From: a virus
Length of the DNA stretch: 22,035 nt
Reading direction: 5' to 3' (one strand)
Virus genome (UHGV): UHGV-0200595
In this document: positions 5,056 through 6,775 of the stretch, in pieces
How positions within the stretch are numbered: the stretch's first letter is position 1
Layout of the letters: every line of letters starts with the position of its first letter
The notes under the pieces: model-generated
The model's database searches: none
Told to the model about the DNA's origin: nothing
Seen by the model: the letters and a program-made list of their open reading frames with translations, nothing else
Translations under genes and position numbers: made by a program

Positions 5056-5931
5056 ATGCCAAAGTTCGCCATCGGCACCCGCCGCGCACCCTGCGCACTG
5101 GTCGATGGTGGACTTTTCAAATTTCAACATCGAGGCTGTATGTGCGAAGAATTAACAATCGTCTATCGCCCGTTAAATGAACTGATACCGTGTGCAAGAA
5201 ATGCCAGAACCCACAGTGATGAGCAGGTGGCGCAATTGGTCGCCAGTATTAAGGAATTTGGCTGGACAAATCCGGTGCTGGTTGATGAAAACGGAGAGAT
5301 TATTGCCGGACATGGTCGTGTCATGGCCGCAGAATCGCTTGGCATGGATATCGTTCCGGTAATTGTCCTTACGAATCTGACAGACGATCAGAAACGGGCG
5401 TATCGTCTGGCAGATAACCGGCTGCCGATGAATGCAGGCTGGGATGTGGAACTGCTGAGGCTGGAAATTGCAGATTTGCTGGATGCTGATTTCGATATTT
5501 CTCTGACAGGGTTTAACCAGGCAGAGATTGACGAACTGCTGACTGAAATTACAACAGACACAGAAAGCGGCGATGAGCCGTACACAGCAAAAATTGATAC
5601 GCCTGTTTATGAGCCGTCAGGAGAAAAGCCTGATATCGGAGAATTGTACGACGACGAGAAGACTCAGGAACTGGCAGAGCGTATCCGCAAAGCCGGGCTT
5701 GACCCAGAGATCGAAAAATTCCTCCTGAGTGCAGCAGAGCGGCACACCATTTTCAATTTCAGCAAAATTGCTGATTACTATGCTCACGCTCCGGCAGAGA
5801 TACAGGCGCTGTTCGAAGAATCCGCACTGGTGATCATTGATTTTCAGCAAGCCATTGAACACGGTTTTGTCCGTATGACTCAGCGCATGGTGGAGATCAT
5901 GCATGGAGATGAGGAGGAGGAATATGCGTGA
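5056..5931 (+). CDS. ParB N-terminal (ParB/sulfiredoxin-like) domain protein with acidic C-terminal region (291 aa)
   Basis: LIPCARNARTHSDEQVAQLVASIKEFGWTNPVLVDENGEIIAGHGRVMAAESLGMDIVPVIVL resembles ParB-like nuclease N-domain; ATG 5140 is an alternative start. Confidence 0.65.
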   Translation: MPKFAIGTRRAPCALVDGGLFKFQHRGCMCEELTIVYRPLNELIPCARNARTHSDEQVAQLVASIKEFGWTNPVLVDENGEIIAGHGRVMAAESLGMDIVPVIVLTNLTDDQKRAYRLADNRLPMNAGWDVELLRLEIADLLDADFDISLTGFNQAEIDELLTEITTDTESGDEPYTAKIDTPVYEPSGEKPDIGELYDDEKTQELAERIRKAGLDPEIEKFLLSAAERHTIFNFSKIADYYAHAPAEIQALFEESALVIIDFQQAIEHGFVRMTQRMVEIMHGDEEEEYA

Positions 5932-6775
5932 TGATTTTTGCGCATTTATTCTGACCCACGGACGGCCGGATAATGTGCTGACATACCGCACTCTGCGCCG
6001 GGCGGGTTACACCGGAAAAATATATATCGTTGTTGATGACGAGGATAAGACCCGGCAGCAGTATATTCAGGCGTTTGGCGATCAGGTGCTGGTATTTTCT
6101 AAAACGGATATTGCCAGCCGCTTCGATGAAGCAGACAACTTTGGCGACCGTCGCTCAATCTTTTATGCCAGGAATGCCTGTCCGGACCTGGCAAAAAAGG
6201 TTGGGTGTAAATATTACATCCAGCTCGATGACGACTATCACGAGTTCCAGTTTCGGGTGGATCGCAACTATGACCAGGCCTATTTCCCGATAAGGAAACT
6301 GGATGAGATCCTTTCTGAAATGCTGGCGTATTACGAATCAATACCTGCGCTTTCCATCGCTATGGCGCAGGGTGGTGATTTTCTTGGTGACAATGGCGGC
6401 CACGCCGCATGGGTGAAACGGAAGGCGATGAACAGTTTTATCTGTTCCGTTGAGCGACCGTTTTCATTCGTGGGGCGCATTAACGAGGACGTGAACACAT
6501 ACACGAACCTCGGACGGTGCGGCGAACTGTTTATGACAGTGGGGGCTGTGCAGTTGGGCCAGAAGCAGACGCAGAAAAACAGCGGCGGCATGACTGAACT
6601 GTATCTGGATTCTGGTACCTACGTTAAAAGTTTTTACTCCGTCATGTATGCGCCGTCGTGCGTGAAAATCGCACTGATGGGCGCCAGCCATAAACGCATT
6701 CACCATCAGGTCACCTGGAACAACGCTGCAGTAAAAATCCTTCACGAAAAATATAGGAAGAAGACACCCTGCTAA
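5924..6775 (+). CDS. Soluble protein with GT-A-like (nucleotide-diphospho-sugar transferase-like) motif pattern, function unknown (283 aa)
   Basis: Start ATG overlaps ParB-like gene stop (ATGCGTGA) with GAGGAGGAGG SD; motifs FILTHGRPD, IYIVVDDED and YYIQLDDDY spaced like a GT-A fold; no hydrophobic TM segments; assignment is inference. Confidence 0.45.
   Translation: MRDDFCAFILTHGRPDNVLTYRTLRRAGYTGKIYIVVDDEDKTRQQYIQAFGDQVLVFSKTDIASRFDEADNFGDRRSIFYARNACPDLAKKVGCKYYIQLDDDYHEFQFRVDRNYDQAYFPIRKLDEILSEMLAYYESIPALSIAMAQGGDFLGDNGGHAAWVKRKAMNSFICSVERPFSFVGRINEDVNTYTNLGRCGELFMTVGAVQLGQKQTQKNSGGMTELYLDSGTYVKSFYSVMYAPSCVKIALMGASHKRIHHQVTWNNAAVKILHEKYRKKTPC

Follow-up and report, generated by a model that had tools for sequence, protein, structure and literature searches.

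Phages classically counteract restriction by decorating their DNA with sugars, a strategy that is understood only for cases in which a hydroxymethylated base is produced beforehand. Phages also encode fusions of ParB-like domains with DNA methyltransferases, and the genes for these fusions are typically found in late regions near the terminase genes. Here, we analyzed a pair of overlapping genes for a ParB-like protein and a glycosyltransferase (GT), which may form a DNA-directed glycosylation module. The pair lies in the virus genome UHGV-0200595, of which one stretch of 22,035 nt was analyzed; this whole stretch is called the window in the following.

Several described systems resemble one or the other gene of the pair. 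In two papers of 2026, the Pfam family PF20691 (TAGT, for TET-associated glycosyltransferase) has been equated with the enzyme of T2/T6 by which glucosyl-5-hydroxymethylcytosine (glucosyl-5hmC) receives a second glucose (PMC13216743; PMC13390438). TET-linked phage DNA glycosyltransferases belong to this family as well. Phage GT-A enzymes whose genes adjoin those of a C5-methylase and a TET-like dioxygenase attach various sugars to 5hmC, and for these enzymes the active-site pattern R...DDD...ED(Y/F) has been defined and TarP has been reported as the best fold match in the PDB (bioRxiv 2023.12.21.572611). In the same study, about 65% of the GT contigs had no dioxygenase or thymidylate-synthase neighbour and were set aside as less obviously DNA-related (bioRxiv 2023.12.21.572611). 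Experiments have shown that phage DNA thymine dioxygenases require activation by ParB-like proteins without a helix-turn-helix (HTH) domain; the activator needed its nucleotide-binding domain as well as its C-terminal domain, and the C-terminal region was predicted to contact the enzyme (PMC13229309). A 2025 survey of ParB-fold fusions does not mention glycosyltransferases. No functional study of a ParB-like/GT pair was found in the literature searched, which did not cover the TAGT-defining paper of Iyer et al. 2013 (NAR).

The downstream gene of the pair (5924..6775, + strand) encodes a protein of 283 amino acids (aa). The comparison with Pfam TAGT yielded 123.9 bits (cut-off 27.5; 1.1e-35) and covered profile positions 4-205 of 205, and the match to PHROG 842, which bears the name of the T2/T6 beta-glucosyl-HMC-alpha-glucosyltransferase, reached 1.1e-98. 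The sequence-only reading, an earlier interpretation of the same DNA, had recognized neither protein as a member of a characterized family. For the GT this was wrong, as its 124 bits are far above the cut-off of 27.5. The pair is also common and already carries names given by annotation pipelines. The three peptides that had been singled out in that reading, FILTHGRPD, IYIVVDDED, and YYIQLDDDY, are all present in the product. The active-site residues R14 (5963-5965), D102-D104 (the DDD motif, 6227-6235), and N187-E188-D189 (the NED motif, 6482-6490), all encoded on the + strand, are invariant or nearly so in 57 sequences down to 41% identity.

An AlphaFold2 model of the GT had a mean predicted local distance difference test score (pLDDT) of 91.2 and a predicted template modeling score (pTM) of 0.89. 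A Foldseek search of the PDB with the model retrieved TarP as the best match (4e-6), followed by other GT-A enzymes, and the fold neighbours included SunS/ThuS, ppGalNAc-T, and glycogenin. The template modeling (TM) scores against TarP were only about 0.4. In the viral model database BFVD, TAGT proteins were matched with TM-scores of up to 0.85, and the beta-glucosyl-HMC-alpha-GT of a T4-like phage was also matched (6e-9, TM 0.62). A sequence search against the PDB returned nothing meaningful, scans with PADLOC and NCBIfam gave no match, and no membrane or secretion features were evident in the model. The soluble GT-A-like protein that had been proposed is thus supported by the model with its pLDDT of 91 and by the PDB matches to TarP and GT-A enzymes. 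Homology to a non-transferase family did not emerge; rather, profile and structure searches placed the GT in a DNA-glycosyltransferase family. In summary, the profile match and the structural model allow the 283-aa protein to be assigned with confidence to Pfam TAGT, with a GT-A fold. The family around it is large, and a full representative search yielded 1342 clusters at 50% identity, 499 of which were below 1e-30.

Some relatives of the GT carry additional domains. GTs that are 45-55% identical are fused to a class-I S-adenosylmethionine (SAM) methyltransferase, a sulfotransferase, a second GT-A domain, or a P-loop kinase-like domain. These fusions suggest that the sugar is extended or tailored in some phages. 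Radical SAM genes adjoin the pair in two unrelated metagenomic phages (locus L083, 80-1042; locus L160, 7053-7655), in the first of them together with a kinase-fused GT. Such neighbours are reminiscent of gene sets for thymidine hypermodification; no hydroxymethylase is in view at either locus.

The upstream gene (5140..5931, + strand) encodes a protein of 263 aa that matches Pfam ParB_N (1.8e-9) and, over its whole length, PHROG 620 (2.4e-80). The ParB/Srx nucleotide-binding N-domain and a helical linker (5140..5553, + strand) occupy residues 1 to about 140, and the N-domain that had been recognized from sequence was confirmed with 38 bits against PF02195 (cut-off 26.3). The closest relatives of N-domain and linker are ParB domains fused to phage N6/N4 DNA methyltransferases, with 3e-53 for PHROG 498 and 5e-43 for PADLOC MTase_II, and both matches end at about residues 145-172. 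The earlier proposal that the usual methylase partner is replaced here by another transferase is therefore reasonable. The residues N21, R23, G57, R60, D92, and N93, which belong to boxes II/III, are kept in 87-99% of 118 distinct partner proteins (G57 in 99%, R60 in 97%, D92 in 92%, and N93 in 97%); by motif position, they correspond to nucleotide-binding and catalytic residues of characterized ParBs, as mapped by inspection and without structural superposition. A canonical partition ParB was considered and rejected. The protein reached 41.3 bits against TIGR00180, which is under the cut-off of 58.45, a Pfam scan found no HTH DNA-binding domain, and the window contains no ParA gene.

The remainder of the partner protein is a C-terminal domain (CTD) of about 115 aa (5554..5928, + strand), which is the signature partner domain of this GT subfamily. 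It has no Pfam match, no fold match, and no methylase signature. The possibility that it is a cryptic enzyme was rejected, as it is a helical unit of 115 aa without a catalytic signature. The CTD part opens with the linear motif YTAKIDTPVYEPSG (5581..5622, + strand; residues 148-161), which is predicted to be disordered and has a low pLDDT. Among distant homologues it follows the pattern Y-[ST]-x-K-x-x-x-P-x-Y-E-P, with Y148, P155, and Y157 unchanged throughout and either S or T as residue 149. The CTD also contains a strand-like SALVIIDF segment and ends with an acidic tail.

Both open reading frames (ORFs) that had been proposed from the sequence are real, are located on the + strand, and overlap by 8 nt. 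The overlap ATGCGTGA spans 5924-5931, with the ATG of the GT at 5924-5926 and the TGA of the ParB-like gene at 5929-5931. It is preceded by a strong Shine-Dalgarno-like run, GAGGAGGAGGAA, at 5911-5922, so that the junction as read from the sequence occupies 5911..5931 (+ strand). The start of the GT is set to 5924 by its N-terminus MRDDF, which is conserved across homologues. The alternative starts at 5903 and 5909 were rejected, since MRDDF is conserved and the Shine-Dalgarno-like run precedes 5924. The start of the ParB-like gene had been placed at 5056, and this was not borne out. The 28 additional codons that a start at 5056 would give form an open frame in the three closest relatives only, and most other relatives have stops or unrelated sequence there. 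Because the extension is not kept and the homologues are 259-268 aa long, the gene most likely starts at the ATG at 5140, as judged from these alignments.

The coupling of the two genes is a general feature. A start/stop overlap of 4-20 nt, mostly 8 or 11 nt, is present in 126 of 135 non-identical related loci, and therefore the coupling is beyond chance. The exceptions are loci in which the two genes are kept apart by an additional domain or gene, for example a P-loop kinase-like domain fused to the GT (L083) or a SAM methyltransferase gene (L113). In the latter locus (7671-9727), a stand-alone CTD gene, the methyltransferase gene, and the GT gene form three overlapping genes.

Next, the co-occurrence of the domains was analyzed with our own profiles for the N-domain, the CTD, and the GT in 155 loci, in which the identity of the GT ranged from 98% to about 40%. 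A CTD-bearing ORF was located just upstream of the GT in every GT-bearing locus, and in all 153 of these loci a ParB-like or CTD-bearing ORF directly adjoins the GT. The pair is present in Lactobacillus gasseri phage phi jlb1, L. delbrueckii phage c5, Nocardia phage NTR1, and halovirus HHTV-2, and also in a Porphyromonas gingivalis phage with a GT that is only 27% identical; both partner domains, the ParB N-domain and the CTD, were detected in all five. The loci thus span phages of Proteobacteria, Firmicutes, Actinobacteria, and Bacteroidota as well as a haloarchaeal virus. In divergent pairs, the mean identity is 55% for the GT, 48% for the CTD, and 36% for the ParB N-domain. About eight distinct partners have no ParB domain at all. 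A profile search with the CTD alone retrieved thousands of proteins, and among the 120 top matches the majority are stand-alone proteins, 125-140 aa in length and devoid of any Pfam domain. In 3 of 3 such proteins that were looked up (four loci), a TAGT gene follows with an overlap of 11 nt. A T4-like Vibrio jumbo phage likewise has, among replication genes, a stand-alone CTD gene that overlaps the TAGT gene behind it. A further example of the loci with a stand-alone CTD gene is L154 (5459-5878). Taken together, as some partners lack a ParB domain and an abundant stand-alone CTD precedes TAGT genes, the comparative data define CTD plus GT as the predicted core system, to which the ParB domain is a frequent but optional addition.

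The pair is also abundant in enterobacteria. Megablast at about 82% DNA identity found it in 1004 of 5426 complete Escherichia coli genomes, and the query coverage was at least 80% in 874 of the 1004 matches. Protein relatives occur in Salmonella, Klebsiella, Citrobacter, Enterobacter, Serratia, Yersinia, and Pantoea. The labels of the Prokaryotic Genome Annotation Pipeline (PGAP) are ynaK (ParB/Srx family protein) for the first gene and hypothetical or "GREB1-related protein" for the second. In 81 close loci the order is always ParB-like gene, GT, an 83-aa ORF, and the gene for the small terminase subunit (TerS).

The genomic position of the pair depends on the form of the partner. The ParB-fused form is usually located directly upstream of terminase genes, and this holds across at least three unrelated terminase families (Terminase_6, lambda GpA, Terminase_3, and Terminase_2 were found beside the pair). 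In phage c5 the two genes come first after the cos site. The stand-alone form is found among genes for single-stranded DNA-binding protein (SSB), helicase, and primase, or a few kb upstream of terminase genes. Neighbours were clustered for 1208 ORFs from 85 diverse loci. The widely shared clusters were the GT (85 loci), ParB/CTD (83), and the largest cluster of the large terminase subunit TerL (44), followed by a cluster with 15 loci, and the clustering revealed no recurrent third gene among the neighbours. A Pfam census of the 113 recurrent clusters yielded structural families as well as families for packaging, recombination, and replication. The top 25 of the 65 Pfam families included neither a dioxygenase nor a thymidylate-synthase family, while rare single occurrences are possible.

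We hypothesized that the two proteins form a late-acting, two-protein module for DNA-directed glycosylation, and we give this explanation about an even chance of being correct. The module would be self-contained, and as part of the late operon of the phage it would be expressed shortly before the DNA is packaged. The catalyst would be the 283-aa protein, a metal-dependent GT-A enzyme of the TAGT family that presumably uses a host nucleotide-sugar as donor, and the 263-aa protein would be its dedicated adaptor or activator. The conserved CTD would dock the GT, and the HTH-less ParB/Srx N-domain, with its nucleotide-binding residues kept, would hold the complex on DNA as a dimer or clamp that is gated by a nucleotide. 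The same mode of action has been proposed for the ParB partner of phage thymine dioxygenases and for the ParB domains in phage DNA-methylase fusions. The target would most likely be replicated phage DNA, which would be decorated with sugar before packaging and would then withstand host nucleases in the next cell. The physical contact of CTD and GT, DNA as the acceptor, the donor sugar, and the anti-restriction role are what we infer from the combined observations. A modification of DNA before packaging, as in the case of late-expressed phage methylases, would fit with the methylase-type ParB domain, the kept nucleotide-binding residues, and the position next to terminase or replication genes. 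The glycan-tailoring fusions in relatives (SAM methyltransferase, sulfotransferase, and second GT) would fit with a decorated glycan that is built on a polymer.

The expression of the pair can be deduced from its surroundings. No promoter-like site was found ahead of the pair, and its base composition is the same as in the rest of the phage; therefore, expression together with the late genes is expected. For the same two reasons, it is unlikely that the pair is a separately expressed moron with its own promoter.

A more specific version of the DNA-directed module is that the sugar is placed directly on DNA without a phage-made hydroxymethyl-pyrimidine, with a canonical or host-methylated base or the backbone as acceptor. 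This version appears rather unlikely to us. If it is true, the chemistry of this DNA glycosylation would be undescribed so far, and it would be guided by an adaptor domain that had not been recognized before and usually comes fused to a ParB nucleotide switch. About one fifth of the complete E. coli genomes would contain it, as would phages from at least four bacterial phyla and phages of haloarchaea.

Several observations weigh against a DNA-directed module. All characterized TAGT enzymes, the kinetoplastid base-J glucosyltransferase (JGT), and the T-even enzymes use a hydroxyl acceptor, and canonical DNA bases offer none; therefore, DNA glycosylation would need a new chemistry or an unrecognized precursor in this case. 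An enzyme that forms a hydroxyl acceptor (TET/5mYOX or a hydroxymethylase of the thymidylate-synthase type) was not found in the window, which represents the late half of the genome, with the early region of the phage outside it. A dioxygenase, a hydroxymethylase, or a C5-methylase is not annotated in the genomes ON470614, c5, and phi jlb1 (32-39 kb), of which the records of c5 and phi jlb1 were viewed in full and that of ON470614 from nt 896. Views of about 20 kb of nine distant contigs also contained no acceptor-forming enzyme. The typical TAGT neighbour, an enzyme that makes a hydroxymethyl-pyrimidine, was thus not found in the sequences covered, and with it the contextual feature behind the family name is missing there. 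The contact of CTD and GT is proposed from gene adjacency and co-conservation only. As partners that consist of the CTD alone exist, the core function can do without the ParB domain. A ParB with mutated nucleotide-binding residues still activates the thymine dioxygenase (PMC13229309), and because those mutations did not abolish activation, the clamp mechanism is unproven even in that system. Lastly, a TAGT-related domain of human GREB1 glycosylates a protein and not DNA (PMC7968844). Possible ways around the acceptor problem are a new DNA acceptor, a protein acceptor, or an acceptor that is made elsewhere or by another phage.

The second of these solutions would mean that the GT transfers sugar to a protein, either to the disordered YTxK..PxYEP motif of its ParB-like partner or to a packaging or virion protein encoded by an adjacent gene. 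This is unlikely in our estimate, and the following observations speak for it. The residues Y148, S/T149, and Y157 are invariant within a segment predicted to be disordered, as is typical for peptides bound by an enzyme. There is an obligatory partner domain, no pathway for a DNA acceptor was seen in the records inspected, and the pair adjoins structural and packaging genes. The GREB1 domain attaches O-GlcNAc to its target protein (PMC7968844), and the PDB fold neighbours SunS/ThuS, ppGalNAc-T, and glycogenin are peptide or protein glycosyltransferases. However, DNA is indicated by the ParB domain to which the CTD is often fused, since it is most closely related to DNA-methylase fusions, and by the replication-gene neighbours of the stand-alone CTD form. 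Furthermore, the characterized phage members of the TAGT family act on DNA, and the neighbouring terminase and capsid families vary, so that there is no constant protein target besides the partner itself.

The third solution is the canonical role of a TAGT enzyme. In this case the GT would act on 5hmC, 5-hydroxymethyluracil (5hmU), or a glucosylated base that is made elsewhere, either by the unseen early region or by co-infecting T-even-like phages, the latter in inter-phage conflict or superinfection exclusion. The membership in the TAGT family is in agreement with this role, only the late half of the genome is contained in the window, and the pair also occurs in the T4-like Vibrio jumbo phage. 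It has also been suggested in the literature that prophage GTs might hypermodify invading genomes. Nevertheless, we regard the canonical role as distinctly improbable. The related genomes of 32-39 kb have no annotated enzyme that would make the base, no acceptor-making family recurs among the neighbours of the 85 loci, and a late-operon pair without a promoter-like site is expected to be silent in lysogens.

That the pair consists of two unrelated accessory genes, a ParB-like nuclease or packaging helper and a GT for an envelope polymer (TarP-like) or a small molecule, is very improbable. In favour of this reading are TarP as the top match in the PDB, the common annotation "ParB-like nuclease", and the site as a hot spot for moron insertion with trkG in Rac-like relatives. 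Against it, the overlap and strict co-occurrence extend across bacterial phyla and to an archaeal virus, the envelope polymers of these hosts are wholly different, the GT model has no evident membrane or secretion features, and its TM-score is about 0.4 to TarP versus 0.85 to viral TAGT proteins.

The gene content of the window, as judged from Pfam and PHROG matches, is that of the late region of a P22-like lambdoid phage or prophage. The gene order begins with NinB, YbcO, antiterminator Q, a DNA methylase remnant, and a hicBA insertion. It continues with two holin-like genes, the endolysin gene (4159-4704), an Rz-like ORF, the ParB-like gene, the GT, and the 83-aa ORF. Beyond them follow TerS, TerL, portal, scaffold, coat, head-completion, needle, and ejection proteins. 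The pair is thus placed on the + strand between lysis genes on the 5' side and the TerS and TerL packaging genes on the 3' side, in agreement with the earlier placement.

The 83-aa ORF (6793-7044, + strand, GTG start) is given as context only. It is present between GT and TerS in all enterobacterial relatives with intact downstream sequence (52-96% identity), and it has a partial match to the TerS-like PHROG 309. In distant loci it is missing as such, and TerS follows directly after the GT. The genes for TerS (7048-8127, + strand) and TerL (8124-9539, + strand), directly downstream of the module, also belong to the context only, and they were identified by Pfam Terminase_2 and PHROGs 51, 3717, and 2.

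On the other side of the pair, the Rz-like ORF (4701-4883, + strand) directly follows the endolysin gene and encodes 60 aa with a lipobox-like LLVGC; the scans yielded no Pfam or PHROG match. From these sequence features, it may be a spanin-type lysis lipoprotein. Between it and the ParB-like gene is a non-coding gap of 256 nt (4884-5139). The potassium-transporter gene trkG occupies this position in Rac-like E. coli relatives, and therefore the gap appears to be a recurrent insertion site for accessory genes (morons).

A further trace of insertion is found near the beginning of the window. Of an N6/N4 DNA methylase, the region 2154-2660 (+ strand) retains just the C-terminal part, which covers positions 121-210 of the 221 in the Pfam profile; the region is placed directly after antiterminator Q and a terminator-like hairpin. 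This truncated remnant is the sole methylase in the window. It is followed on the opposite strand by a hicB/hicA-like toxin-antitoxin pair (2723-3154 and 3179-3397, - strand). The arrangement looks like a late-operon methylase gene that was broken by a moron insertion.

The module is among the commonest glycosyltransferase arrangements in temperate phages, and yet it comes without a hydroxymethylation step. Because of the invariant partner domain, the ParB fusion of the methylase type, and the position before the terminase genes, the GTs that had been set aside are again candidates for DNA modification. If DNA is the acceptor, ordinary prophages would contain a new DNA modification that affects restriction, defence systems, and sequencing. 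If a protein is the acceptor, the pair would be a phage protein-glycosylation system on the scaffold of a DNA enzyme. Either outcome would extend the emerging idea that ParB-fold proteins regulate DNA-modifying enzymes. The pair is of interest mainly because it is self-contained and very common, because its chemistry is unexplained, and because it can easily be tested in E. coli prophages.

The comparison with the known systems shows how far each resembles the pair in the window. The T2/T6 beta-glucosyl-HMC-alpha-glucosyltransferase shares Pfam PF20691, PHROG 842, the GT-A fold, and DXD-type motifs with the GT. However, the similarity of the two is below the detection by tblastn, and the glucosyl-5hmC used by the T2/T6 enzyme stems from a dedicated pathway, whereas the pair in the window has no hmC pathway and has an obligatory partner domain. 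The 5mYOX/TET-associated GTs have the same active-site pattern, TarP as best fold match, and a phage origin, and ParB-like and terminase genes were noted among their neighbours (bioRxiv 2023.12.21.572611). In contrast to the subfamily in the window, which has neither enzyme, they use 5hmC from an adjacent C5-methylase and dioxygenase. JGT and human GREB1 have been reported to be relatives of the phage GT-A/TAGT domain; JGT differs in that it needs 5hmU made by JBP, and GREB1 in that it glycosylates a protein. The canonical partition ParB has the ParB/Srx fold and the box II GxxR arginine in common with the ParB-like protein, which differs from it by the absence of an HTH, of ParA, and of a parS-type architecture and by its location in a phage late operon.

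The closest parallels are systems in which a ParB-like domain accompanies a DNA-modifying enzyme. The ParB-N6/N4 methyltransferase fusions (PHROG 498; PADLOC MTase_II) include the nearest relatives of N-domain and linker, but in the window protein the 115-aa CTD takes the place of the methylase domain, and catalysis would be provided in trans by the GT. ParB176 of the ParB176/5mYOX176 system likewise consists of a nucleotide-binding domain, a linker, and a C-terminal domain without an HTH, it has the same substitutions of N for Q52 and H for E93 (mapped by motif), and it is encoded beside a DNA-modifying enzyme, often near terminase genes (PNAS 2026, PMC13229309). The pair in the window has this ParB/5mYOX-type layout, with an HTH-less ParB-like protein beside an enzyme of a DNA-glycosyltransferase family. 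The two systems differ in the enzyme, which is a dioxygenase in the case of ParB176, and in the C-terminal domains, which are too variable to be aligned in the dioxygenase system, whereas the CTD is the best-conserved part of the partner in the window and also occurs as a stand-alone protein. By analogy, the arrangement would work like the ParB-dioxygenase and ParB-methylase systems, with another enzyme and with a distinct, highly conserved docking domain.

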